Shown: in pieces, positions 9,243-31,207 of the stretch
Position numbering within the stretch: the first letter of the stretch is position 1
Layout of the letters: every line of letters starts with the position of its first letter
Assembly: GCF_900079115.1 (NCBI RefSeq)
Contig: NZ_LT549890.1
Coordinates: 1,050,001 to 1,082,000, forward strand
DNA from: Saccharolobus solfataricus
Lineage (GTDB): Archaea; Thermoproteota; Thermoprotei_A; Sulfolobales; Sulfolobaceae
Length of the DNA stretch: 32,000 nucleotides
Reading direction: 5' to 3'
Translations under genes and position numbers: made by a program
Notes under the pieces: model-generated
What the model was told of the DNA's origin: nothing
Databases searched by the model: none
What the model saw: the letters and a program-made list of their open reading frames with translations, nothing else

Positions 9243-9719
9243 ATGACCAAAGAATTGACGAGGGAGGAGTACTATAAGGCATTGGAAAAGGCAGTTAACG
9301 AGGTCATACTATCCATGACTGGAACGAGGAAGGACGTTGCCAAGAGGCTCGTCCTGGGGGCGGTTGTGGGAAGAAATGCTACCGAGATAGCTCAGGAGGC
9401 CGAGATGGACTACGAGACCGTGCTGAATAACTTGGACAAGGCAGCTCAAGCCAAACTAATCGAGGTCGTGAAGAAGTTAGTCGGGGATCATCCTGTCCTT
9501 CTCATAGTGGACGACACCCACGACCACAAGCTCTACGCTAGGGCCATGCCGGTCTCCAGAAACGGGGCGCAGATCTTCTACTGTAGGGCGCACAAGAGGT
9601 TCGAACCCGCGATCCAACTCCTTGTGATTGGCGTCAAGGATCTGGTGAACAACCAGATCTACGTTAGTGCTTTCAGAAAGTTTATAGCTTTAGGCAAAGG
9701 ATATATCACTAGATCATAG
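9243..9719 (+). pseudogene. DDE transposase of the host IS, N-terminal fragment
   Basis: MTKELTREEY...LLIVDDTHDHK (first catalytic D). Genuine sequence ends at about 9662 (..NNQIY); the ORF tail reads into the MITE. Confidence 0.75.
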
Positions 9720-9747
9720 TCTAAGAACTTTTCCAAAATACTAGTGA
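9660..9747 (+). mobile_element. ISC1048-derived MITE, copy X (75-bp core 9667-9741 between TA dinucleotides)
   Basis: Both ends closely match the termini of the ISC1048-like element. GTGCTTTCAGAAAGTTTATAG matches GTGTTTCCGAAAAGTTTATAG, and reverse-complement GTATTTTGGAAAAGTTCTTAGACT matches GTATTTCCGGAAAGTTCTTAGACT. Host transposase fragments on the two sides share a frame and lie 87 nt apart. Confidence 0.65.
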
Positions 9748-9749
9748 TC

Positions 9750-9869
9750 CACATAATTGCCTACATACCCCGAAAGGTGGAAGAGGAGCTCAAGCGTAGG
9801 GGTGAGGAGGTGAAGTTCAAGACCAAGATAGATGCCCTCTTGGAGTTTCTCTCCTTATATAAAACATAT
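9750..9869 (+). pseudogene. DDE transposase of the host IS, middle fragment
   Basis: HIIAYIPRKVEEELKRRGEEVKFKTKIDALLEFLS..., same frame and GC-rich composition as the N-terminal fragment. Confidence 0.5.
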
Positions 9870-10013
9870 TAGTCAGATCTGCGTATTACAGATCTGACTG
9901 GGGTTGAGGCCGTTGCTCTCCTTGGGCTTAGAGCTCGAGAGGGAGCTTGGCCTCCTCCAATTCGGACCGGAAGTTGGGCTTGAAGCCCGAATAAAACATA
10001 AGGGTGAGTATAC

Positions 10014-10607
10014 ATGGAGGCCCCAGTCGCCGGAATAGATGTTTCAAAAGATAAATTAGTAGTGTACTTCCAAGGTAAATACTATGAATTTCAAAATAAT
10101 AAGCAAGGTTTTGAAGGAGTAAAGCAAGTCTTGCCAAAGGGTTGCAAAGTTGCTATAGAAAGTACTGGAATTTACCACATCAACTTGGCTAAGTACTTGG
10201 GTAAGGAGTACGACGTGAGGATTATTAATCCCCTCGTACTCAAGAAGTTCAAGGACATTAGGGGTAAGAAGAGTGATAAGAATGACGCTAAAAAGCTCGC
10301 TGAACTAGTTATAAGTATGGGCAGTGAGTTTACAACGAGTGAGGCTAAGGAGTCAACAAGCCAATGGGATTTTATTACAAGGAGCATTGTTAGGGTTAAG
10401 AATAGGCTAAGGAGGGATTTAATACTTCTAGGCTATAAGGACAGTTTGTCCAAGAAGAACTTGAATGAGGTATTGAGGGGGGAGGATAATATAGTATTAT
10501 CTGAGGTTAGGTTCCTCTTGGACGAGTTGGAGAGGCTTAAGGTTAGGAAGAGGGAGATTGAGGAAGAGCTTGAGGATCTTGTTCCTAAGGATAGTTTGAT
10601 CTTCACT
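10014..10607 (+). pseudogene. IS110-family transposase, N-terminal (DEDD) fragment
   Basis: VAGIDVSKDKL, VAIESTGIYH, INPLVLKKF and KSDKNDAKKLAEL motifs. The ORF-track tail 10608-10646 reads into the ISC1048-like element. Confidence 0.8.
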
Positions 10608-10608
10608 A

Positions 10609-11655
10609 GTATTTCCGGAAAGTTCTTAGACTTCAATTTTATCTAATCCTAGGTATGTTATTGCATTAAGATTAAATCTATACTTATTTTCTTCAAAGAA
10701 CTGTTTAATACAGTTTTTAACGTCTTCTATCGTATAGAATATTTTATTGCTCATGTAGTTCTTGAGGGACTTGAAGACCGCCTCAGCCATATTAAGCTCA
10801 GGCGAGTAAGGAGGAGTAAACACGGGATGAATACCCTTCCTGCGACAAACCTCAAGCGTACCCTTAGTCTTGTGAGGAGAGTAATTATCCATGACCATGT
10901 AAACCCTACCACTACCCACACGCCTCTTAAAGTACCTCAAGAAATACTTAACGGATTCAGAGTTAGGCCTTTTAGCAAGAGAAACCACTACTTCGCCGGT
11001 CCAAGCGTTTATAGCTAGAATAACATAGATTGAGGAAAAACCTATATTGACGCGCATTACGGGCTTACTGCCAACCTTAGCTAGAACCTTCTTAATTGAC
11101 GTGCTAATTACTGTCCTACACTCGTCTAGAAAGAACAGTGCCTTTCTTTCCAATTTCTTTATTTTTTTTTTAAAATCTTCCCACTTGTCCTTTTCTGCTT
11201 GGATGTTGGTGGGTCTGGGTTTTACTAGGTTGTATCCTAGTTCGTGGACTAGTTCGTATAGTCTGGATTTCTTGTATTCTATTCCTTGTTCTTGTAGTGC
11301 TATCTTGAGTGTTTTCATTGTCCAATATTCTTGTTGTATTCCGTATTTTTGGGGCTTATCTTCCAGAATTTGTTTTATCTTTTCCTCTTCTACTTTTCTG
11401 GGTCTTCCTGATCTGGGCTTGTCCTTTAGTCCATCAAGACCTTCTTTCTTGTACTTGCCAATCCACAATTTTATCGTGGAATAGCCCTTGTTAAGCATTT
11501 TCGAAACTTCTTTCTCCGATTTACCATCAACTACGTGCAGCTTCACTGCAAGAATCCTCTCCTTAATTCTCGCGTTCTTCTCTTCCTTATAAGCTTGAAC
11601 CAAATCTTGCATAGTTCAATCTGGTAATACTAATCTATAAACTTTTCGGAAACAC
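10609..11655 (-). mobile_element. ISC1048-like IS630/Tc1-mariner-family element
   Basis: 1047 bp between TA dinucleotides (10607-10608 and 11656-11657). Terminal inverted repeats GTATTTCCGGAAAGTT and (reverse complement) GTGTTTCCGAAAAGTT. Intact transposase inside. Confidence 0.75.
10626..11612 (-). CDS. IS630-family DDE transposase (intact)
   Basis: N-terminal HTH (GYSTIKLWIGKYKKEG, RSGRPRK). DDE triad context FFLDEC, MVMDNYSPHKT and YSPELNMAE. 328 aa. Confidence 0.9.
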   Translation of the reverse strand: MQDLVQAYKEEKNARIKERILAVKLHVVDGKSEKEVSKMLNKGYSTIKLWIGKYKKEGLDGLKDKPRSGRPRKVEEEKIKQILEDKPQKYGIQQEYWTMKTLKIALQEQGIEYKKSRLYELVHELGYNLVKPRPTNIQAEKDKWEDFKKKIKKLERKALFFLDECRTVISTSIKKVLAKVGSKPVMRVNIGFSSIYVILAINAWTGEVVVSLAKRPNSESVKYFLRYFKRRVGSGRVYMVMDNYSPHKTKGTLEVCRRKGIHPVFTPPYSPELNMAEAVFKSLKNYMSNKIFYTIEDVKNCIKQFFEENKYRFNLNAITYLGLDKIEV

Positions 11656-11660
11656 TAACG

Positions 11661-12017
11661 ATTCCGGGTATTGGCAGAACGCTGGGTTGTATAATTTTAG
11701 CAAGAGTTGGTGATGTTAAGCGTTTTGGTAACAAGAAGAGGTTTGTCGCTTATTGTGGTCTCGATCCTCTTGTTGAATCCAGTGGGAAGAGTGTTGTATC
11801 GAGAGGCATATCTAGGAGGGGTGATGCTGTTTTGAGGAGGGCTTTCTATCTTGCAGCTTTAACTGCTATCAAGGTTAATCCTATTATCAAGCGTTTTTAT
11901 GAGGAGCACAAGGAGAATTTGAAGGGTAAGAAGTTGATTATTGCTTGTGCCAGGAAGCTTGCTGTTATTACTTGGGCTGTGCTGTATTATAATAAGCCCT
12001 TTGATGCTAGCGAGTAA
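11661..12017 (+). pseudogene. IS110-family transposase, C-terminal fragment
   Basis: IPGIGRTLGCIILARVGDVKRF...YCGLDPLVESSGKS...RGISRRGDAVLRRAFYLAA. Same frame modulo 3 as the N-terminal fragment. Confidence 0.8.
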
Positions 12018-12063
12018 AGCAGGTGACATCACTTGAATAAGTAGTGTGTACTATGCTCGATTT

Positions 12064-12151
12064 TCACTAGTATTTTGGAAAAGTTCTTAGACTATGATCT
12101 AGTGGTATATCCTCTGCCTAAAGCTATAAACTTTCTGAAAGCACTAACGTA
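12064..12151 (-). mobile_element. ISC1048-derived MITE, copy X' (inverted relative to X; core 12070-12144)
   Basis: Its reverse complement is 86/88 identical to 9660-9747, including 5 and 4 nt beyond the flanking TA dinucleotides. Confidence 0.65.
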
Positions 12152-13205
12152 CTTTGTTGATTTGTTCAATTTGTCTCATTAAAACGATATTGTATAACAC
12201 TAATTTTTCAGTAATTAATATTTATTTCAACGTTCCTCTCAAGCTTACACCCTAATGCCCGGAGCCCTACCGACTACAGAATTCGCCAAGTGAACCATCC
12301 ACGCGTAAGCCCAGAACTTGAGCTTAGCCTCAACTACTTGTCCAGCAAAACTTGTTGCCCTAACCGATTCCCCAAAAGTACGCTTCACCGCAGAGAACAA
12401 GGACTCGACCCTCCACCTAACGCCATAACCCTTCTCCTCCCTCCAACGATCATAACCCAACTTCCTAAACTCCCGCACAGCCTTACGTCTAGCAAGATGG
12501 CCCCTTTTAGTAGAAGCGTTCTTCTTGGGAGGAACTACAACCTCAACTCCGGTCTTGTAAACCTCATTGGCGTCATATGTCTTATCTCCATAAAACTTCT
12601 TGACCTTCTTTCCCTTATCTTGAAGATCCTTAACTGTTTTTACAGCGCTTTCAACCTCGTTGCTAGTGACCTCAGCGTTTATCACGTTGAATTCGTTATT
12701 GTCCATTACTATCTCGATCTTGAGGAATTTTGAATCCCTAGTCTTACCCCACTTGGCAACAATGTATTGTCCTCCCGTGTTTGTGCTAATGCCTGTAGCG
12801 TCTGCAATTACTTCAAGTTCGTCACTTGCCTCGGGGAAGGTTATTTTCATGTTCCTCACTCTCTTCCATATTGTTGAGTAATCGAGGCTTGTGGGGATGA
12901 TCTTCAATTGTTCTAAGGCTCTTAATACTCCTTCTATTGCTCTGTAAGGTAGGAAGATGTGGAGGAAGGCTAGGAATTCGTCGAACTCCTTCGGAGCTTT
13001 ATACTTTGTCCTAGCGTTCCTGTTCTCCTCTGCTAATAAGTCCCACCAATGTTCGAATACGTAGAAGGGGAACATCAACTTATATCTAGTAATGACGTTC
13101 TCGTCGTACTTGCTCCAGTCCCTCTTGTACTTACTCTTTCCCATAGGTAATACTTAAACGAATAATTTATAAACTTTTTGTACAATTCTGAAGCAATCCA
13201 CAAAG
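12152..13205 (-). mobile_element. ISC1058-like IS5-family element
   Basis: About 1054 bp. Imperfect terminal inverted repeats CTTTGTTGATTTGTTCAATTTGT and (reverse complement) CTTTGTGGATTGCTTCAGAATTGT. Intact transposase. No target duplication visible. Confidence 0.65.
12245..13144 (-). CDS. IS5-family DDE transposase (intact)
   Basis: VIADATGIS, FYGDKTYDA and RWRVESLFSAVKRTFG motifs, 299 aa. Confidence 0.85.
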   Translation of the reverse strand: MGKSKYKRDWSKYDENVITRYKLMFPFYVFEHWWDLLAEENRNARTKYKAPKEFDEFLAFLHIFLPYRAIEGVLRALEQLKIIPTSLDYSTIWKRVRNMKITFPEASDELEVIADATGISTNTGGQYIVAKWGKTRDSKFLKIEIVMDNNEFNVINAEVTSNEVESAVKTVKDLQDKGKKVKKFYGDKTYDANEVYKTGVEVVVPPKKNASTKRGHLARRKAVREFRKLGYDRWREEKGYGVRWRVESLFSAVKRTFGESVRATSFAGQVVEAKLKFWAYAWMVHLANSVVGRAPGIRV

Positions 13206-13772
13206 CAATTTTCACGGAAAGGTTTTTATACCGGAAGCTCCCTCTCAAGTTTGAATGTAAAAGCTAGGGTCTTCGACTCATGGTACGTGAACTCGAGGAC
13301 TCTCCAATGGAATACTGTGGGGGAACTCAAGTCCAGCGCGCGAGTCGTCGAGGGTGGCAGATCCGTGCCCGTTAGCGAGTTCCCCCAAGGGGAGTACCTG
13401 GTAGAGTACTTGGGTACTCCCATAAAGTTACTTGTTATAGATGATTATAAGGGTTACGGGAGGAGGTATTTCTTCTCCACCGACCTTAACGACACGGCTG
13501 AAGATATCATAACGACCTGGGAGAACCGTTGGGACATAGAGGTCTTGATCAGGGAGCTCAAGGCCTTGGGACTCGAGGGTGGGTCCTTCTTGACCTGGGT
13601 TAGGAACTCAGGCTTCGTGGCCTTGAAGGCTCTCTCCCTCCTCGTTGTTCAATACTTCAAGTACTCCACGGGTCTGATGCTCGGGGCCAAAAGGTTGGCC
13701 AGATTGATAAAAAGTATTTACCGTGAGGCGGGTGGGATCAAAAAACTGTTCAAGAGGAGGAGAAAACCGTAA
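13173..13772 (+). pseudogene. DDE transposase of the host IS, C-terminal fragment
   Basis: ARVFDSWY (second D) and WENRWDIEVLIRELK (E/K motif). The frame is open from 13173 and has no ATG; the ORF track starts at TTG 13251. Confidence 0.75.
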
Positions 13773-14157: not shown

Positions 14158-15060
14158 TTACTTCTTAATTAGTCTTTTAATTTCCTCCCACATCTCGTCA
14201 ATCTCCTCTTGTATGCCCTTTATTTGTTCTTCAGTGAGCTGTTTAAATCTTCCTTGTAATTTTAAATACTCCGCTACTGGTTTCCTATTCTTCTTCTCAA
14301 CTAACGTCTTACTCACACTAGTTAGTTTAAATTCACCATTTTCTATTTCAAAGAGTGGCCAAACTCCAGTCTCAACTGCAAGTTTTGCAATATCGATAGT
14401 TAATTTAGAATCGAAACGCCAACCAGGTGGACATGGGGACAATAAGTGTATATATCTAAATCCTCGAATCTGTTTAGCTTTCCTCATCTTAGCTTCATAA
14501 TCATATATGTAAGCAATTGACGCAGTGGCAACATATGGTACTTTATGTTCTGCAATGATGAATGGTAAAGGCTTTTTAACCTCTCTCTTACCTTCAGGAG
14601 TTGTAGTAGTCCAAGCCCCCTTAGGAGTTAAGCCTGAACGCTGAATTCCAGTATTCATATAAGCTTCGTTATCATAGCATATGTAAAGGATATCCTCATT
14701 TCTCTCAGCAGCACCACTAACTGCGGCAAATCCTATATCACCAGTAGAACCATCACCAGCCCAAACAGCCACTATTGCGTCATTATCTCCCCTCATTCTT
14801 AGGGATCTAACAATCCCAGAACCTATTGCAGCAGCTGCTCCAAAGGCACTGTGAACTACTGGTACAGTTGAAGGCATCCCATTAGTATCTCCCATTATTA
14901 TCGTAGTACATGAAGCTGGAACTACTAGCACTGTCTTATTCCCTAAAACTTCTAGGGCTACGTCTAACTCTTTAGGTATTGGACAGCCTGGACAAGCAGC
15001 ATTTCCTCTGTAGAATTTAGGCATTCTCTTCGGTGTTACTTGACTACTCAAAACAGCCAC
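14158..15060 (-). CDS. 2-oxoacid:ferredoxin oxidoreductase, beta subunit (TPP-binding; POR/VOR type)
   Basis: CPGCP near the N terminus and TPP motif [12 protein letters not shown]...[10 protein letters not shown]. Overlaps the alpha gene by 13 nt. Confidence 0.85.
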
Positions 15061-16205
15061 CTCTCTTCTTCTAAATTATCGTTAATTAGGTCTTCAATTA
15101 CCTTTTGGAAATGACGTGGTCTGACGTCCTTCCCACCAATACCCGCTACTACACTATAAACTGGTACTCTATACCCATAAAGTGCAGCCTTTATCTCATT
15201 CACTAAGATGCCACCATAACCATATGAGTAAGCTCTATCGAAAACCACTACACCTTTCATTGACCTTAAATACTCCTCAACTTTCTCCTTTGGAAATGGT
15301 CTAAACACTCTGATTTTAAGCAACCCAGTCTTAACTCCACTATCCCTTAATCTATCAACCGCAGCTTTACCGTCACCACTCCAAGCACCCATGGTAACGA
15401 AAACGTATTTAGCATCTTCACATTTATAACACTCAACTAAACCATGCTGCTTCCTACCACTTATTCTTTCGTACTCACCCATTATTTCTTCAATAACTCC
15501 TTTTGCTCTCTCCATGGCTTTCATAGCCTCGTATCTATACTTGATATATTCCTCTGGAGTAGCAATTGGTCCAATAGCAATAGGGTCGGAAAAGTCAATT
15601 AGATTAAATTGCCTAGGCGGTAAAAAATTATCTACCTCATTATCCTCCAATACCTCAATTCTTTCCATTGTATGAGTTAATATGAAGCCGTCAAATCCCA
15701 TCATGACTGGTAAGATTACCCTCTCATCTTCTGAAATTCTAAAAGCTTGTATTGTCATATCGTAAGCTTCTTGCACGTTTTCTGCCATTATTTGAATCCA
15801 TATGGCGTCTCTTTTACTTACGAAATCTTGATGATCATCCCAAATACTCCATGGCTCAGCTATAGCTCTAGTTGCAACTGCAGCAACAATAGGAACTCTT
15901 TGACCTCCGGCCCAATATATCATTTCAGTCATGTATAGAAGTCCTTGAGAAGAAGTAGCAGTGAAAACTCTAGCACCAGCTAATGCTGCACCATAAATTG
16001 AAGCTAATGCTGAATGTTCGCTTTCAACCTTTATTAACTCAGCCTTTAATTCCTCCGAAGAAATATACTCAGAAAGTTTCTCCAACATTGTAGTTTGAGG
16101 AGTTATTGGGAATACTGCTAAAACTTTGGGTTTAGCTTGCTTAACAGCATAAGCAACTGCGTGATTACCGACTAAAGCTAGAACTTTCCTCTTTAAAACT
16201 TGCAT
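15048..16205 (-). CDS. 2-oxoacid:ferredoxin oxidoreductase, alpha subunit
   Basis: GNHAVAYAV...FPITPQT N-terminal signature, 385 aa, operon position. Confidence 0.85.
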
Positions 16206-16208
16206 TAT

Positions 16209-16475
16209 TTATTTCACCTCCCTAACCATATCTATAGCCTTAGGTGGGCAAACTTGTGCACAAACGCCACAACCTTTGCAGTAATCATAATCAATTTGAG
16301 GATATAGGTTCTCTAGGAGATCAATGGTATTTTCCAGACAATAAAGTACGCAAAGTCTGCATTTAGTACATTTATCGTAACTAATCACTGGTTTCTCTAC
16401 TCTCCATAATCCGGTTTTTCCAGCTGAACCTATCTTTGGCCTTGCAACTGGAACTCCTATTGGAACTTTAATCAA
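16209..16475 (-). CDS. 2-oxoacid:ferredoxin oxidoreductase, delta subunit (2x[4Fe-4S] ferredoxin)
   Basis: [11 protein letters not shown] and [12 protein letters not shown] cluster motifs, 88 aa. Confidence 0.85.
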
Positions 16476-17040
16476 CCCTTTTCACCTCCTTATATCCTAT
16501 TTCAACTGCCTCTGCATTCAGTTCACCGATTTTTCCGGGAAATTCCTCCTTTACAGCCTCTTCCAATGAGTGTAAGGAAGGTTGGCCCAAGATTCTTGCT
16601 AAAGCCCCTATCATTGCTGTATTAACAATAGCCCATCCAGCTACTATTAGTCCTAATTCTTTAGCAATATTGGTAGCGTCAACTACATACTCATTCTTCC
16701 AAATTCTTTTAGGTGTATTTGTGTTCAATAGCAAGAACCCGTTTTCCTTAAGACCCTCCGTAACGTTAATTAGTTGGATCATTGATACATCAAATATTGC
16801 TACACCATCTGGATTGTAAACCTCTCTATGTAAGAGTATTGGCTTATCTGATAGTCTCACAAATGAAACAACTGGTGCTCCCCTCCTTTCTCCGCCGAAA
16901 AAGGGAATAGATTGGGCGTATTTGTCCTCTAAAACCATCGCCTTCGTCATAAGTTCTCCAGCGGTAACTATCCCTTGCCCACCTCTTCCTCTTAAAGCTA
17001 ATTCAATAAGAGTCATTTTGTCACAATTATAATATTCCAA
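16468..17040 (-). CDS. 2-oxoacid:ferredoxin oxidoreductase, gamma subunit
   Basis: [14 protein letters not shown] signature. Overlaps the delta gene by 8 nt. The true start may be the internal Met at 17016. Confidence 0.85.
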
Positions 17041-17193: not shown

Positions 17194-19260
17194 ATGATAC
17201 AAGAGCATTTACCTCTTATAACTGGCAAAGGTAGTTATATAGATGATATTAATCCGAAGAATGTAGTTTACCTTCACATAATTAGATCTCCAATAGCTAG
17301 GGGTATAATAAAGAGTATATCCAAACCGGAAAGCGCACTCTTATCGTTAACATGGGAAGATGTGAAATTATACATGCCAGTGAGGCTATTTCCAGACCTA
17401 GCTAAAACTGCACAAGTTGCTAAAATGCCAGTATTGGCTGATGGTAGGGTCAACTTCGTAGGTCAACCAATTTTAGCATTTGTGGTTGAAGATAGGTACA
17501 GGACTGAGGACGTTGCAGAGGAAGTTTTAATTGATTATGACGAATTAAAGCCAGTAGTTGATCCTGAGGAATCCTTAAATGCGGATCCCATTCATCCAGG
17601 TTTAAAAAGTAACATCTCCATAGATCAACTTTTAGAAGGGGGAAACTTATCATTAAAAAATAAGGCTGAGGTTGTTGTAAGTAGGAAACTTAAGCAACAA
17701 AGGGTAGTTTCAAATCCAATGGAACCAAAAGGTTTCATCTGTTGGTGGGATAATGATATACTAAACGTTTACGTTTCCACACAAGCACCGTTTGGAGTAA
17801 AGAATGATCTAAGGGAAATTTTAGGTATTTCTCCAGAAAAGATAAGAGTTTATTCCGCGCCTAACGTAGGAGGAGGATTTGGGAATAAGAGTGGGGGATA
17901 CCCAGAATATGTCCTAGCAGCGATAGCTTCCTTGAAGCTTGGTAGGCCAGTTAAATGGATAGAAACTAGAAGTGAAATGCTAGTCAATACTCAATCCTTA
18001 GGTAGAGGGGAGGTATCAGATATGAGACTTTATGCTACCAAGGACGGTGAGATTTTAGGAATAGAAGGCACTATAATAGCAAATATAGGTGCTTTCGATT
18101 ACGGAATAGGCTTCATTGCTCCTTTATTTATTGCGAGACTATCTAATGGTCCCTATAAGATGAAATTCGCATCGATAAGAGCAATGGGAGTATTTACTAA
18201 CACTCCTCCAATGGGATTTTATAGGGGTGCTGGTAGACCAGAGGCTGCTTTAATTCATGAGACTTTGGTTGAGGATTTGGCTGAGGAGTTGGGTGTGGAT
18301 TCTGTTGAGATTAGGAGGAGGAATTTGATTGGTGATAATGGTTATGTTACTCCTTTGGGTGTTAGGATTGATCCTGCTGGTTATAATGAGGTGTTGAATG
18401 AGGCTGAGAAGTATTATAGGAAGGCTAAGGAGGTTTATAAGGACAAGGGAGTTTCAATAGTTACGTTCGCCGAGATAGTCAGAACTTCGCCAGGTGAAGG
18501 TGCTAGAGTTAAGATAGAAAACGGTAAAGTACATTTTTACTTGGGAATAGGTCCACATGGTCAAGCTTATGGTAGCACATTCAAGAGACTGGCATCTGAA
18601 GTACTAGGTATAAGTGAAGATAAAATAGAGATAACTACTGGTAGTTCTGAGATAGTTAAAGAGGGAATAGGTAGTTTCGGTTCTAGGGCAGGCACTATAG
18701 GAGGTTCTGCCGTGATAGCTGCTGCAACTGAATTACTCAAGAAGTTGAATACTAATTCTTTAAATGAGAGTGAACTAGTTAAGTATGAAGGTGTTGAGGC
18801 TGAAGTGTTCTATAAAGCTGATGATATCTTTGCCCCAGGAGCTCACGTAGCTGTAATTGATGTAGATAAGGAGACTGGATTTATTAGAGTTTTGGAGTAT
18901 TACGCTGTTGATGATGTTGGTAGAGCTATGAATAAGGAAGAGATAGAGGGACAAATAATTGGAAGTGTCCTACAAGGGGCATCACAAGTTATAATTGAAG
19001 CTATGAGATATGATGAGAGGGGAATCCCATTATGTTCCTCAATTGCAGATTGTGGAGTTCCAACAGCTTTGGAAGCTCCTTTAAAGGTAAAAACTGAGTA
19101 TATAGAGTATCCCTCTCAGCTTTTGTCCAGAAGTAGAGGTGTAGGAGAGGCCGGCACGACCGGCGCTTTACCAGCTGTTTTCATAGCAGTGGAAAAGGTT
19201 ACTAAAAAGAAGTTTGATAGAACCCCCGTAGATCCTTGGATATTAGTTTCCTCTACATAA
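17194..19260 (+). CDS. Molybdopterin hydroxylase large subunit (xanthine dehydrogenase/aldehyde oxidase family, non-form-I)
   Basis: GKGSYIDDI...IIRSPIARG N terminus, GGGFGNK, active-site loop GFYRGAGRPEA, GVGEAGTTGA near the C terminus. 688 aa. No adjacent small or medium subunit genes. Confidence 0.85.
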   Translation: MIQEHLPLITGKGSYIDDINPKNVVYLHIIRSPIARGIIKSISKPESALLSLTWEDVKLYMPVRLFPDLAKTAQVAKMPVLADGRVNFVGQPILAFVVEDRYRTEDVAEEVLIDYDELKPVVDPEESLNADPIHPGLKSNISIDQLLEGGNLSLKNKAEVVVSRKLKQQRVVSNPMEPKGFICWWDNDILNVYVSTQAPFGVKNDLREILGISPEKIRVYSAPNVGGGFGNKSGGYPEYVLAAIASLKLGRPVKWIETRSEMLVNTQSLGRGEVSDMRLYATKDGEILGIEGTIIANIGAFDYGIGFIAPLFIARLSNGPYKMKFASIRAMGVFTNTPPMGFYRGAGRPEAALIHETLVEDLAEELGVDSVEIRRRNLIGDNGYVTPLGVRIDPAGYNEVLNEAEKYYRKAKEVYKDKGVSIVTFAEIVRTSPGEGARVKIENGKVHFYLGIGPHGQAYGSTFKRLASEVLGISEDKIEITTGSSEIVKEGIGSFGSRAGTIGGSAVIAAATELLKKLNTNSLNESELVKYEGVEAEVFYKADDIFAPGAHVAVIDVDKETGFIRVLEYYAVDDVGRAMNKEEIEGQIIGSVLQGASQVIIEAMRYDERGIPLCSSIADCGVPTALEAPLKVKTEYIEYPSQLLSRSRGVGEAGTTGALPAVFIAVEKVTKKKFDRTPVDPWILVSST

Positions 19261-20873: not shown

Positions 20874-21293
20874 GTGCAGGATAAAATAGAAATTTATGGC
20901 GAAGAATACGATGAGAAACTTTCTGTAATATTAGCCGATCCCAATTTTTTAATTACAAATCTGCTTGGGGCGTCAAATGTTGATATTAAAGAAGGCGACT
21001 TTACTGCAGAAGTTCCTTTATCAGCACTACTTGGTAAGGCTACAATAGTAATATATGGCAAAGTCTTCAGATCCCTAAACTCTATAACTTATGTGATTAA
21101 CGTTGCCGGATATGGTCCAGATAAGGGTGGGAAAATAAGAGTCCAGTTAGAAAAAGGTAAGATAATTATTGATGTAGAATTTAATATTCCATTAGGGTTT
21201 TTAAATGCAAGACTTATTAAATCGAGAATAGCCGATTTCAAAAACAAGGCAAATGAGTTGATAAGACTAGAAAGGATAAAGAGAAAAATTTAA
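20874..21293 (+). CDS. Hypothetical protein (139 aa)
   Basis: Clean ORF with a GTG start at leaderless spacing from a TATA box. Alternating beta-like pattern and a C-terminal helix. Any SRPBCC/CoxG-like assignment is only a guess. Confidence 0.55.
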   Translation: MQDKIEIYGEEYDEKLSVILADPNFLITNLLGASNVDIKEGDFTAEVPLSALLGKATIVIYGKVFRSLNSITYVINVAGYGPDKGGKIRVQLEKGKIIIDVEFNIPLGFLNARLIKSRIADFKNKANELIRLERIKRKI

Positions 21294-22879: not shown

Positions 22880-23204
22880 TTAACGGGGGTTAAGGGATCT
22901 TCCGCCCCCTTCCTCAAGGGGATGGATAGCCCCCTTATATAAAAGTTTTTTAACTAATCTAATCATATATTTCTTACATGATAGTTACCAATGGAGTAAG
23001 CGTCACCGAGACGCCTTGGTTAAAGCGAGGGTCAATGAGGTACGCCTCTGCTCCAGACAGTAGCCCCAAAGGCGGTAACAGTGTCATGGTTAATGAGTTT
23101 CGTTCGGGGTCGGAACGACCCTTAGTGTGGAGCTCTGCCCTCTACCGCTGGCAAGGTGGGGGTATGAGGCAGGAAGCCTTGTCCGTTAGGGCAGGGCAGT
23201 TCAC
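22880..23204 (+). mobile_element. tnpB-less IS200/IS605-derived element (MITE-like); left boundary uncertain
   Basis: GC-rich hairpins (for example CCCCTT-CCTC-AAGGGG at 22906-22921), a TATA-like TTATATAAAA (22935-22944), then a structured GC-rich segment. That segment ends in the same right-end sequence, with terminal TCAC, as the element at 1-934. Confidence 0.45.
23104..23204 (+). ncRNA. Orphan copy of the TnpB right-end / omega-RNA-like scaffold
   Basis: CGGGGTCGGAACGACCCTTAGTGTGGAGCTCTGCCCTCTACC...GGCAAGGTGGGG...GCAGGAAGC... aligns with 829-934. Similarity stops after TCAC in both copies. The 22978-23214 ORF is a by-product of this similarity. Confidence 0.4.
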
Positions 23205-23447: not shown

Positions 23448-23681
23448 GTGAGTAGTCTTAAGATATATAAGGAATTGGATTTGACTAGTTCTTCGTGTGC
23501 TGGGCCTATTGGTGAGTTGTCCAGTGTTATTGATGAGTTGAGGGATGGCGAGGCTGTTAAGGTCATTTTGGGTGATGAGGCCACTAAGAAGGACATTACT
23601 TTGTGGAGTAAGAAGAAGGGCTTGAAAATAGTACAAGAGTCGCAAGAGGGAAGCAAGTACGTATTATTAATAAGCAAATAA
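23448..23681 (+). CDS. TusA/SirA-like sulfurtransferase
   Basis: 77 aa. LDLTSSSCAGPIGEL corresponds to the TusA active-site Cys loop, with CAGP in place of CPxP. The two-layer alpha/beta pattern continues with EAVKVILGDEATKKDI. Confidence 0.65.
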   Translation: MSSLKIYKELDLTSSSCAGPIGELSSVIDELRDGEAVKVILGDEATKKDITLWSKKKGLKIVQESQEGSKYVLLISK

Positions 23682-23685
23682 GGAA

Positions 23686-24729
23686 TTAGGTTACTTTTCT
23701 TTTTTCTCTCCTATTTTTATTCAAAAGGAGTGTATTAGGTGAAGTTAACATATGGACGTATTTTAGGGCAATTTTTATGCTCTTTATGTCTGGTGTAAAT
23801 GAAGGTTTATCCATTAATGGGTTAATCCAGATGATAGAGTTACACCTTTGTTTTATAATTTTCAACTCTCTTTCTAATAACTCTAATTCACCTAAATCCC
23901 ATCCATCGCTAAATATTACAACACTACATTTCCTGAATAGTAATTCGCCATAGTTTTTCCTTAGATTATATAAGGCTTCTCCTATTCTCGTTCCACTTCC
24001 ATAAGATACTAGGGAGATTATTTTTTTCACATCAATCTCGTCTATTCTGCTTACTTGGAAAAATTTTGTAACTCTTCTCATATCAGTACTAAAGTAGAAT
24101 ATTTCAGCTCTATTAGTAACTCTTCTAGTAAAGAACGAGAGTAATAGTATTTCCTTAATATAGTCCTTCATTGAACCTGATATATCGCATAATAATACCA
24201 TGTATGATTTATTTATTTTCCTCCTATGTTTAATAAGATATGGCGATTCTAATGAGTATTTTATTTCATCCCTTATTGTCATTCTTACATCTATTTCCCC
24301 GTTATCATTAACTTTGAATCTATGTCCCTCATAATTTAGTGTAATTTCCTTGAGCCTCTTTGCTATTTTACTCCATTTTATCATGTCACTATTTTCTATA
24401 TTGAATAAAATTGTCTTAATTTTAGATTCAGCTGGACTATACATGTAAAGTTCATTGGTTAAATATGGCCTATCAGTTACTTTACCCAGAACTGAATATT
24501 TATTTTCAATTTCTTGTCTTTCATCTAGTCTATCTTTATCTATTGCAAAATCTTTTATCATTGTTGCCTTTAGTACTGCCTTAATGGTCTCAAAATCTCT
24601 GTCTTTTATTAATTTTAGTGAATTTATCGTGTCTATAGTCTCATCTACTCCAACATTCCTACCTAATTGTCTGATAATATTAGCTATCTTTATTATTTTC
24701 TTTTCTTCTTCCATTTTTAATTCCCTCAA
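23686..24729 (-). CDS. coxE: VWA-domain protein, CoxE-like
   Basis: MIDAS motif LLCDISGSM...GSGTRIG...FSDGWD. Immediately downstream of the MoxR ATPase. The 50-nt overlap shrinks if the Met at 24714 is the start. Confidence 0.75.
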   Translation of the reverse strand: MRELKMEEEKKIIKIANIIRQLGRNVGVDETIDTINSLKLIKDRDFETIKAVLKATMIKDFAIDKDRLDERQEIENKYSVLGKVTDRPYLTNELYMYSPAESKIKTILFNIENSDMIKWSKIAKRLKEITLNYEGHRFKVNDNGEIDVRMTIRDEIKYSLESPYLIKHRRKINKSYMVLLCDISGSMKDYIKEILLLSFFTRRVTNRAEIFYFSTDMRRVTKFFQVSRIDEIDVKKIISLVSYGSGTRIGEALYNLRKNYGELLFRKCSVVIFSDGWDLGELELLERELKIIKQRCNSIIWINPLMDKPSFTPDIKSIKIALKYVHMLTSPNTLLLNKNRREKRKVT

Positions 24730-25628: not shown

Positions 25629-27986
25629 TTACTCATCAGACGCTACTCCTTTCTCCTTGAGAACCTTCCAAACTTTCCACGGCCATATGGGCATGTCAAT
25701 ATGTTTAACTCCTAAATCCCATAAGGCGTCAACTACTGCATTCACAAATGCCGCTGGGGATCCTACAGTAGCTGACTCTCCTACTCCTTTAGCACCTAAA
25801 GGATGATGTGGTGATGGTGTCACAGTCTTATCTAATTCCCATTTAGGTGTTTCAACCGCAGTAGGTATTAGGTATTCGGCGAAGCTTCCTCCATAAATGT
25901 TTCCATTCTCGTCATAACGTATTTCCTCCATGAAAGCTGTACCAAAACCCATTGTTAGTGCTCCCATTATTTGCCCATCCACAATCACTGGGTTTATTAT
26001 ATTACCACAGTCGTCAACAGCCACAAATCTCCTTACCTTAACTTGTCCAGTTCCCTTATCTATATCCACTACACAGATATAAGCTCCAAATGGGAATGTC
26101 ATATTTGGAGGGTTATAATACGTTACTGCTTCAAGTCCTGCTTCAACGTTAGGTGGTGGGTTAGTATACGCAGCAAGTGCAACATCTTGGATAGTTTTAT
26201 ATTTGTCTGGATAGCCTTTAACGTAAAACTTGCCCTTTTCAAATACTATATCCTCTTCTCTGGCTTCAAGTAAATGAGCTGCTATTTTTTTAGCCTTATC
26301 TAAAATCTTTCTAGAAGCTACAGCGGCAGCAGCACCTGCTGTAGGTGTACTACGACTTGCGTAGGTACCTAAACCATATGGACAAGTATCTGTATCACCC
26401 TCTTCTACTATTATGTCCTCTACTGGGATGCCTAATATTTCAGAGATTATTTGGGCATATGTCGTCTCATGCCCTTGACCTTGTGCTCGTGTTCCAAATC
26501 TAGCTATGACTTTTCCAGTTGGATGTATCCTAATTTCAGCACTATCGAACATTTTAATACCGACTATATCAAACAGATCAGCTGGACCAGCCCCTACTAT
26601 TTCCACAAAAGTGCTAATTCCTATGCCCATAAGTTCTCCCTTCTTTCTCTTCTCCTCTTGCTCCTTTCTTAACTCGTAATATCCTATCTTTTCCATTGCT
26701 TTCTTTAACGCTGAAGCGTAGTTTCCACTATCATAAGTCCAACCAAGTGCGGATCTATATGGAAACTTCTCTGGAGGGATGAAGTTCTTTAGTCTTAATT
26801 CTGCAGGATCCATATGTAATTCGTGTGCTAAAATATCAACTAATCTCTCTATTGTGTAAGAGGCTTCTGTTACTCTGAATGAACACCTATATGCTATACC
26901 ACCAGCTGGCTTGTTAGTATAAGCTCCAGTAACCTCAACATACGCAGCCTTTATATCATAAGCACCAGTACAAATACTAAATAACCCTGCTGGGAATTTG
27001 CTTGGATTTGCATCACCATAAAACGCTCCATGGTCACTTATCACTTTAATTCTAAGTCCCAAGATAGTACCATCCTTCTTAGCGGCCAATTCACCATGGA
27101 TGTGGAAGTCCCTTGCGAATGCTGTGCTTCTCATATCTTCTGATCTAGTGTTTATCCATTTAACTGGTCTTCCTAATTTTACTGATGCGTAGGCTGAAAC
27201 TACATATCCGGGATAGACATATACTTTGCCACCAAATCCTCCTCCTATATCTGGTGACACTATCCTTATCTTGTTTTCAGGAATTTTAGTTACCATTGAG
27301 AACACCGTCCTAACGACGTGAGGAGCTTGAGTAGTCATCCATAGGGTTAACTTTCCAGAAACTGGGTCATAATGCGCTATTGACCCCACTGGCTCCATAT
27401 AGGCCACATGTAGACGCTGATAATAGAAGTCTTGGCTCACTACAATATCCGCTTCTTTAAATATTTTTTCAGTAACCTCTTTATTGCCAGCTTCCCATCT
27501 AAATACTAGATTAGATTTCTTATCTGGCCTAACAATAGGAGAATTGGGCTCTAACGCTTTTTTAGGATCGATTACTGGTTCTAACGGCTCATATTCTATT
27601 TCTACTTGATTTGCAGCATCCATCGCTGCATACTTATCCTCAGCTATTATGGCCACTACTTCTTGCCCTTGAAACACTACTTTATCGGTTGGCAAAACCA
27701 TCATTTTATCTCCCATTAACGTTGGGATCCAAGCTAGTCCAGCTTTATCTAGCTCTTCTCCAGTAATTATATCAATAACTCCCGGTATAGACTTAGCTTT
27801 CTCGACACTAATTTTCTTTATTTTTGCATGAGCGTACGGACTTCTTACGAAAACTAGATATGCCATATTAGGTAGTTTTATATCGTCAACGTAAGTTCCC
27901 TTACCCATTAAAAATCTAACATCCTCTTTACGCCTTATCTTATGTCCCATACCGTGAACTCCAATTGGCGGTAAGGTTTCTTCCAT
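25629..27986 (-). CDS. coxL: Aerobic-type CO dehydrogenase large subunit (molybdopterin), form-I active-site loop
   Basis: 785 aa. GGGFGGK. Loop GGIAYRCSFRVTEASY contains the AYXCSFR signature. C-terminal GAKGVGESATVGSPAA. Confidence 0.85.
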   Translation of the reverse strand: MEETLPPIGVHGMGHKIRRKEDVRFLMGKGTYVDDIKLPNMAYLVFVRSPYAHAKIKKISVEKAKSIPGVIDIITGEELDKAGLAWIPTLMGDKMMVLPTDKVVFQGQEVVAIIAEDKYAAMDAANQVEIEYEPLEPVIDPKKALEPNSPIVRPDKKSNLVFRWEAGNKEVTEKIFKEADIVVSQDFYYQRLHVAYMEPVGSIAHYDPVSGKLTLWMTTQAPHVVRTVFSMVTKIPENKIRIVSPDIGGGFGGKVYVYPGYVVSAYASVKLGRPVKWINTRSEDMRSTAFARDFHIHGELAAKKDGTILGLRIKVISDHGAFYGDANPSKFPAGLFSICTGAYDIKAAYVEVTGAYTNKPAGGIAYRCSFRVTEASYTIERLVDILAHELHMDPAELRLKNFIPPEKFPYRSALGWTYDSGNYASALKKAMEKIGYYELRKEQEEKRKKGELMGIGISTFVEIVGAGPADLFDIVGIKMFDSAEIRIHPTGKVIARFGTRAQGQGHETTYAQIISEILGIPVEDIIVEEGDTDTCPYGLGTYASRSTPTAGAAAAVASRKILDKAKKIAAHLLEAREEDIVFEKGKFYVKGYPDKYKTIQDVALAAYTNPPPNVEAGLEAVTYYNPPNMTFPFGAYICVVDIDKGTGQVKVRRFVAVDDCGNIINPVIVDGQIMGALTMGFGTAFMEEIRYDENGNIYGGSFAEYLIPTAVETPKWELDKTVTPSPHHPLGAKGVGESATVGSPAAFVNAVVDALWDLGVKHIDMPIWPWKVWKVLKEKGVASDE

Positions 27987-30307: not shown

Positions 30308-30385
30308 TACAAATTAATATGAAAATGAGACTATTTAAACTTAATCTCACTATATTTGAAAAACACTAAAGAGAGTTTTAATATT

Positions 30386-31207
30386 TTAGCTAGTCATAGT
30401 CAAGTATACTCCCAATAGCGTTATTGCAGAACCAATAATTTGCAATGGTGTAGGGATCTCTCTAAAGAACGCATAAGACAATACGTAAGCCATTATCGGA
30501 ACTAACAATGAACCAGATCCAGCCTTAACACTTCCCAAATGCTTAACCGCATTAAACCAGAAATAGAATCCTCCAACTTGCGAAATCAACCCTAAAGCTA
30601 ATAGCAATCCAATATTCATTACGTTAACCACGAAATGATATCCAATTGGTGTTAAGAGTAATAGGATTGGCAGTGACGTTATTCCCATGAATCCGTTTAA
30701 CTTCACTAAGTCTTCCTTAACTAAATTTCTCTTGTAATATACTGTACCAATAGCCCATACTAAACCTCCTACTAGACCAAACAAAAGCCCTAAATCAAAT
30801 GATAGGAAAGCCGATGCTGTAACTCCTATTACACCTAAAATTATTCCAATAATTCCTTTCGCCTTAACTTTGGTTCCTAAGATCGTCTCTATAATAAGGA
30901 TAAATAGTGGCTGAGTATATATCATAACTGCTACTAAACCGGGATTAGAGGAAAAATAGACGCCTAAGTTTAAAAACGTTAACAATCCCACAAAATTAAA
31001 CAAACCGTTAATAAATTGTTTCAAACCAACTGAAAGACCTCTGCCTAGTATAATGAAAAACACACTAGCTATTGCCACTCTAACAACGCTCACTATCATA
31101 GGCGACGAGTAGTACGTAATGAGTTTAGTTAAAGGATACGAAAGGCCCCAAACTATTGCCACTGGAATCATCCATTTTACAAATAGATATGAGGTACTGG
31201 ATGACAT
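30386..31207 (-). CDS. EamA/DMT-family membrane transporter
   Basis: 273 aa, about 9-10 hydrophobic helices in two similar halves, typical drug/metabolite transporter layout. Confidence 0.7.
   Translation of the reverse strand: MSSSTSYLFVKWMIPVAIVWGLSYPLTKLITYYSSPMIVSVVRVAIASVFFIILGRGLSVGLKQFINGLFNFVGLLTFLNLGVYFSSNPGLVAVMIYTQPLFILIIETILGTKVKAKGIIGIILGVIGVTASAFLSFDLGLLFGLVGGLVWAIGTVYYKRNLVKEDLVKLNGFMGITSLPILLLLTPIGYHFVVNVMNIGLLLALGLISQVGGFYFWFNAVKHLGSVKAGSGSLLVPIMAYVLSYAFFREIPTPLQIIGSAITLLGVYLTMTS

Follow-up and report, generated by a model that had tools for sequence, protein, structure and literature searches.

A very probable form I carbon monoxide dehydrogenase operon in the thermoacidophilic archaeon Saccharolobus solfataricus

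Does the cox gene cluster of Saccharolobus solfataricus encode a genuine molybdenum-copper carbon monoxide dehydrogenase (CODH) together with its assembly machinery, or a member of the same enzyme family that has another function or none? We analysed a stretch of 32,000 nucleotides (contig NZ_LT549890.1, positions 1,050,001 to 1,082,000 of the forward strand), hereafter the window, in which a sequence-only reading had picked out a large subunit, CoxL, carrying the active-site loop AYRCSFR. With a probability of roughly 0.93, the cox region is the form I aerobic CODH operon of this organism. The work confirms a complete operon of this kind in a model thermoacidophilic archaeon. The finding itself is nothing new: the feature is already published and correctly annotated in public databases, RefSeq included.

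Identity of the large subunit

The coxL open reading frame (ORF) is uninterrupted over 785 codons, ends in a stop codon and contains GGIAYRCSFRVTEASY; the codons of the loop translate as first read. Its product scores 1173.9 bits against the NCBIfam model TIGR02416 (aerobic carbon-monoxide dehydrogenase large subunit), a curated equivalog model with a cutoff of 991.15 bits, and falls under the own cutoff of every other NCBIfam model, among them glyceraldehyde dehydrogenase alpha (670 vs 790) and XdhA (417 vs 780). Pfam Ald_Xan_dh_C, MoCoBD_1 and MoCoBD_2 each match far over cutoff, giving the architecture of the xanthine oxidase family: an a/b hammerhead and two Moco-binding domains.

The best matches in the PDB are the three solved Mo-Cu CODHs, from Oligotropha carboxidovorans (1N5W/1ZXI, 1019 bits), M. 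smegmatis (8UEM, 1003) and H. pseudoflava (1FFU, 991). The next enzyme is quinoline 2-oxidoreductase, at 473 bits. Since the whole protein reaches 1173.9 bits with TIGR02416 and 1019 bits with chain B of 1N5W, the motif is not due to chance.

CoxL residues Q220, R367, C368, S369, F370, R371 and E737 correspond to Q240, R387, C388, S389, F390, R391 and E763 of O. carboxidovorans CoxL, where we take Gln240, Arg387, Phe390 and Glu763 to be the relevant residues of the Mo site. Cys368 thus aligns with Cys388, the residue of the bacterial VAYRCSFR loop that binds Cu (Pelzmann 2014). The window encodes a second large subunit of the xanthine oxidase family (17194-19260, plus strand, 688 residues). 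It is 35% identical to CoxL, and its translation contains GFYRGAGRPEA, as the sequence-only reading had stated. Its best model, glyceraldehyde dehydrogenase alpha, gives 518 bits, under the cutoff of 790.

Phylogeny of CoxL

A search of 1.84 billion proteins, clustered at 50% identity, placed just one full-length representative near CoxL (1037 bits, 59% identity); the next comes at 678 bits and 44%. This gap indicates that form I CoxL is essentially a single tight cluster, with the CoxL of the window within it. A neighbour-joining tree (a distance method, 100 bootstraps) was computed from 174 sequences: both large subunits of the window, O. carboxidovorans CoxL, 34 close homologues and 137 full-length representatives. 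The O. carboxidovorans sequence, residues 18-806 rebuilt from the PDB-match alignment of 1N5W, is the single characterised reference in the tree, and the other two solved CODHs enter the argument through their PDB scores.

All 37 sequences with an xYRCSFR loop, CoxL of the window and of O. carboxidovorans included, form one clade in 100/100 bootstraps. The phylogeny proposed earlier as a check of CoxL hence places it with form I and not with form II or other hydroxylases. The loop cysteine occurs in 37/37 form I sequences and in 0/137 others, which have Gly (125), Ala (10) or Ser (2) instead, in line with the earlier statement that AYXCSFR is diagnostic of form I.

A cluster representative from outside the window (P0199, 794 residues) is sister to all form I CoxL, again in 100/100 bootstraps. 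Its loop, LASRAVFRV, is free of cysteine yet has the two-residue insertion of the form I loop; the protein is perhaps a form I offshoot without Cu.

Organisation of the cox cluster

Six genes follow one another on the minus strand (Table 1), in the order that had been read from the letters and that Pfam and NCBIfam both support: XdhC-YHS, coxM, coxS, coxL, coxD and coxE. All six ORFs are intact and of full length relative to their orthologues. The earlier claim of a form I CoxL accompanied by maturation genes is borne out by the TIGR02416 cutoff, the catalytic residues, the 100/100 clade and the co-located coxM, coxS, coxD, coxE and XdhC genes.

Table 1. Features of the cox cluster; positions are those of the window.
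Feature	Coordinates	Strand	Basis
coxF-like XdhC-family maturation factor with C-terminal YHS/TRASH metal-binding domain (XdhC-YHS), 295 residues	29420..30307	-	Pfam XdhC_CoxI, XdhC_C, YHS
coxM, FAD-binding medium subunit, 292 residues	28472..29350	-	Pfam FAD_binding_5, CO_deh_flav_C
coxS, small subunit with two [2Fe-2S] clusters, 163 residues	27988..28479	-	Pfam Fer2, Fer2_2
coxL, Mo-Cu catalytic large subunit, 785 residues	25629..27986	-	TIGR02416, 1N5W_B, form I clade
AYRCSFR active-site loop, CoxL residues 365-371	26874..26894	-	Seven codons translated
coxD, MoxR-type AAA+ ATPase, 291 residues	24680..25555	-	Pfam AAA_5/AAA
coxE, VWA-domain protein, 347 residues from a TTG start	23686..24729	-	Pfam VWA_CoxE, 115.7 bits
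TTTAAATA, candidate archaeal TATA box, ~29 nt upstream of the XdhC-YHS ATG	30332..30339	-	Sequence reading

The end of coxM overlaps the start of coxS by 8 nt, and 1 nt separates the coxS stop codon from the coxL ATG; such overlapping or abutting genes suggest translational coupling of the three subunits. The start of coxE likewise overlaps the end of coxD. Two start sites have alternatives: CoxS would have 160 residues if the downstream start of the gene callers is correct, and CoxE 342 from the ATG at 24714, which the callers chose.

Upstream of the first gene, TTTAAATA would be the promoter element of a leaderless archaeal transcript. A scan of the window for sigma-70 promoters and terminators gave results no better than shuffled sequences, the model being a bacterial one and not applicable to archaea; an Rfam search of the window returned zero matches. 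The G+C content of the cluster, 0.30-0.40, is at the level of the remaining window. Recent horizontal acquisition, judged from composition, was accordingly discarded: G+C matches the surroundings and gives no signal.

Small subunits and accessory proteins

CoxS has the cysteine motifs CDTTNCGAC...C and CGYC...CRC. It is 66-75% identical, and CoxM 44-49%, to the corresponding subunits of form I clusters in Marsarchaeota, Thermoplasmatales and Armatimonadota; for CoxM of Armatimonadota and Marsarchaeota taken together, the values are 46-49%. CoxD, with Walker A GPPGCGKT and Walker B LLIDEIDR, shares 53% identity with cluster-linked ATPases of Thermoplasmatales and Armatimonadota. CoxE carries DISGS, a motif of the metal-ion-dependent adhesion site type (DxSxS).

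In the XdhC-type protein the YHS/TRASH module reads DPVCGM...FCSKYC, and the tail DPVCGMS...YYFCSKYCKDKF is kept in the orthologues of Candidatus Acidianus copahuensis, Thermoplasmatales archaeon AK and Armatimonadota. The fusion is found in all eight form I clusters with readable neighbours, namely those of the window, A. copahuensis, S. islandicus, S. caldissimus, Acidianus brierleyi, Thermoplasmatales AK, Armatimonadota and Calditenuis. Such a tail would fit the role of a copper donor. The orthologous gene of A. brierleyi has been named coxF (Leung 2024, PMC11018855).

Place in the published record

The exact CoxL sequence is already on record. Its cluster at 90% identity has members from Saccharolobus solfataricus, S. 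islandicus, S. shibatae, S. caldissimus and Acidianus brierleyi, in agreement with the earlier view that the genome was of Sulfolobales type, and all named members are annotated 'aerobic carbon-monoxide dehydrogenase large subunit'.

Table S3 of Cordero et al. 2019 (ISME J) lists S. solfataricus WP_009990994.1 as a form I CoxL of the clade 'Mixed 1'; over the ~400 residues visible there it differs from the CoxL of the window at one position (N60 vs S60). The same table assigns entries of Aeropyrum pernix and A. camini to form I 'Mixed 1' with a printed loop AYRGAGR, which is a non-form-I motif.

For A. brierleyi, Leung et al. 2024 (Nat Commun, PMC11018855) described an operon coxEDLSMF with the motif AYXCSFR. 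In their tree, CoxL of A. brierleyi, S. solfataricus and S. islandicus group together, beside Marsarchaeota and bacteria. Whole cells of A. brierleyi consume CO to sub-atmospheric levels, and proteomics found its CoxS, CoxM and CoxL raised about four-fold in stationary phase (same study). Leung 2024 (PMC11018855) and Cordero 2019 both cite Sokolova 2017 for Sulfolobus sp. ETSY as an aerobic CO oxidiser. By analogy with these relatives, the S. solfataricus enzyme should oxidise CO as well.

Weighing the alternatives

Four observations weigh against a functional form I CODH. CoxS and CoxM are marginally closer to subunits of 4ZOH, a non-CODH Sulfolobus enzyme, than to those of a CODH: CoxS scores 263.6 bits with 4ZOH and 239 with 1N5W_A, CoxM 193.2 bits with 4ZOH_B and 190 with 1N5W_C/1ZXI_C, which leaves CoxL as the sole diagnostic subunit. 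No COXG-family gene was found in the cluster of the window or among its neighbours, and the 10 kb around the clusters of S. islandicus, S. caldissimus and A. brierleyi have none either. Neither biochemical nor physiological measurements on this strain appeared in the literature that we consulted. Finally, coxE of Ca. A. copahuensis (L001 6847-7864) appears split into an ORF of 249 residues and one of 63 with the conserved C-terminal part, owing either to a frameshift or to an error of the draft assembly.

The last two points lend themselves to an enzyme that is form I CODH by descent and has become an inactive or decaying relic in a region rich in insertion sequences (IS), the window abounding in transposase genes and IS remnants and the activity of this strain's enzyme being argued from homology. 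We consider such decay very improbable. The six ORFs keep their full length, every catalytic residue that we checked is conserved, the G+C content is that of the surrounding genome, and the identical CoxL was obtained in four independent sequencing runs as well as in a complete chromosome.

That the cluster encodes a hydroxylase of an organic substrate (an aldehyde, an N-heterocycle, 'form II'-type) resembling a CODH in looks only is scarcely tenable: the family is large and often mis-annotated 'CO dehydrogenase', several cutA paralogues exist in the genome, one of them the second large subunit of the window, and CoxS and CoxM are as near to 4ZOH as to CODH subunits, but CoxL passes the CODH cutoff while staying well under all others, shares its loop cysteine and its fully supported clade with form I sequences exclusively, and stands beside a CODH-specific coxD/coxE pair. 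A form I CODH remains by far the most probable product of the operon. A mapping to the locus tags cutA-1 to cutA-6 of S. solfataricus P2, used in proteomics of the Salzano type, did not identify the matching cutA.

Proposed mechanism and electron output

By homology, CoxL would bind a molybdopterin-cytosine-dinucleotide (MCD) cofactor with a [CuSMoO2] centre, in which Cys368 of the AYRCSFR loop would ligate Cu(I). Oxidation of CO to CO2 would take place at this [CuSMoO2]-MCD centre, and the two electrons would travel by way of the two [2Fe-2S] clusters of CoxS to the flavin adenine dinucleotide (FAD) of CoxM, then to the respiratory quinone pool, the presumed acceptor, and on to the terminal oxidases. 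The metal centre would be matured after folding by the products of the flanking genes: CoxD, the AAA+ MoxR protein, is expected to drive Mo sulfuration as the first step, after which the VWA protein CoxE and the XdhC-type, CoxF-like protein would deliver and insert copper, with the YHS/TRASH tail as a plausible Cu(I)-binding module. The maturation roles of CoxD, CoxE and CoxF come from O. carboxidovorans (Pelzmann 2014), and it is from the genetics of that bacterium that we infer the roles of the accessory proteins in S. solfataricus.

CoxG is an SRPBCC protein that couples the enzyme to quinone or the membrane; its gene is common in cox clusters and does not define them, being present in 24 of 30 (Kropp 2025). 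Only for the genomes of S. islandicus and A. copahuensis did the same study fail to turn up any coxG homologue, and its authors proposed that electrons take a different path there. As the Sulfolobales clusters examined are without coxG, their Mo-Cu CODHs would have to pass electrons to the caldariellaquinone pool by another route.

One gene near the cluster was considered as a substitute. It lies 2.4 kb from coxE (20874-21293, plus strand) and encodes a DUF3211/STK_08120-like protein (Pfam PF11485, 78 bits), of a family of lipid-binding proteins specific to thermoacidophiles. A single-sequence AlphaFold model, with a mean confidence (pLDDT) of 75, has a helix-grip fold; its nearest PDB structures belong to its own family (3W9K/2EJX, fatty-acid-binding protein) and then to the COXG family, for example 2NS9, titled 'Pfam COXG'. 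In precomputed annotation, the CoxG of Armatimonadota weakly matches the Pfam model of DUF3211.

The protein of the window has no match to Pfam COXG even at E<=10, and BLAST against a COXG-annotated protein of A. brierleyi gives a marginal alignment of 58 residues (E=0.006). In S. islandicus, S. caldissimus and A. brierleyi the ~10 kb around cox are free of DUF3211 genes, as is the 10-kb contig of A. copahuensis; the DUF3211 gene of A. brierleyi is flanked by a transporter gene and a glycosyltransferase gene. Searched within Sulfolobales, the COXG-domain protein of A. brierleyi retrieved only its own 91% cluster, a result that, because of a word-index prefilter, is uninformative for S. solfataricus. 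With neither synteny nor a COXG match, we rejected DUF3211 as a cox-linked substitute for CoxG save as a low-probability lead; the modelled fold speaks for it, but it is very doubtful that this protein is the missing quinone shuttle.

Neighbouring features of the window

A gene of the TusA family of sulfur carriers (23448-23681, plus strand) converges with coxE, the two genes ending 4 nt from each other. S. islandicus (L014 14220-14465) and S. caldissimus (L016 14216-14524) share this arrangement, and their TusA proteins are 87-88% identical to that of the window. TusA is absent from both Acidianus loci, of A. brierleyi and of A. copahuensis, and was left out of the cox maturation system.

Directly upstream of XdhC-YHS stands a gene for an EamA-family transporter (30386-31207, minus strand). 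In Thermoplasmatales archaeon AK, an EamA-family gene lies directly downstream of coxL (L012 10465-11358). As the two proteins are only 25% identical, their occurrence near cox in both genomes may be a coincidence.

The second large subunit is an orphan, with no adjacent genes for FAD or Fe-S subunits; its gene is divergent to a four-gene cluster for 2-oxoacid:ferredoxin oxidoreductase (14158-17040, minus strand). Between it and the cox genes, the segment 22990-23215 (plus strand), especially 23104-23177, is rich in G+C and predicted to be strongly structured (226 nt, minimum free energy -90 kcal/mol). The core of this segment matches 829-907 with 86% identity, a stretch covering the 3' terminus of a TnpB-like ORF (202-897) and the sequence behind it; the element is probably an orphan right end of IS200/IS605 type or the remnant of a guide RNA. 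By the appearance of their sequences, TnpB-like and transposase-like ORFs are dense at 202-897 and 9243-13772, and G+C rises to 0.40-0.46 at 9-14 kb.

Comparison with known cox systems

Because S. solfataricus and S. islandicus can both be manipulated genetically, the locus is a convenient testing ground for two questions: how a Mo-CODH without CoxG couples to the respiratory chain, and whether the YHS/TRASH tail is the copper donor of the [CuSMoO2] site.

The six-gene module is kept in S. islandicus, S. caldissimus, A. brierleyi and A. copahuensis, and its genomic context differs between Saccharolobus and Acidianus. The six-gene cluster of A. brierleyi matches that of the window gene for gene and in order, XdhC-YHS included; it too has the AYRCSFR loop and is without coxG. 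Identities to the window reach 92% for CoxL, 90% for CoxS, 76% for CoxM and 75% for CoxD; CoxE (54%) and XdhC-YHS (63%) are far more diverged than CoxL. A. brierleyi belongs to another genus and its cluster has other flanking genes; physiology and proteomics exist for that system, whereas the one of the window is known from its genes.

Measured from S. solfataricus, the accessory proteins of S. islandicus (XdhC-YHS 62%, CoxE 59%, CoxD 77%) and of A. brierleyi are about equally diverged, while the adjoining TusA is 88% identical between S. solfataricus and S. islandicus. This hints that the cox module has a history of its own inside the Sulfolobales.

The 'Mixed 1' clusters of Marsarchaeota, Thermoplasmatales AK, Calditenuis and Armatimonadota are more distant, with CoxL 70-78% and CoxS 66-75% identical to the window. 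The XdhC-YHS fusion is common to the window and to Thermoplasmatales AK, Armatimonadota and Calditenuis. COXG-family proteins adjoin coxL or coxM in the clusters of Marsarchaeota and Armatimonadota, but not in those of Sulfolobales.

Across 771 aligned residues, CoxL shares 58% identity with that of O. carboxidovorans, along with an identical YRCSFR loop and the same Gln and Glu catalytic residues. The sequence-only reading held that the cluster mirrors bacterial coxMSLDEF. For gene content this stands: coxM, coxS, a MoxR-type coxD, a VWA coxE and an XdhC-type coxF are common to both. The likeness ends with the XdhC-type gene, which lies upstream of coxM in the window and after coxE in O. carboxidovorans, and whose archaeal product is fused to a YHS/TRASH domain that is not among the CoxF motifs listed by Pelzmann 2014. 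Unlike its bacterial counterpart, the cluster of the window is without coxG and coxBCHIK, and it is a chromosomal cluster whose host is an archaeal thermoacidophile.

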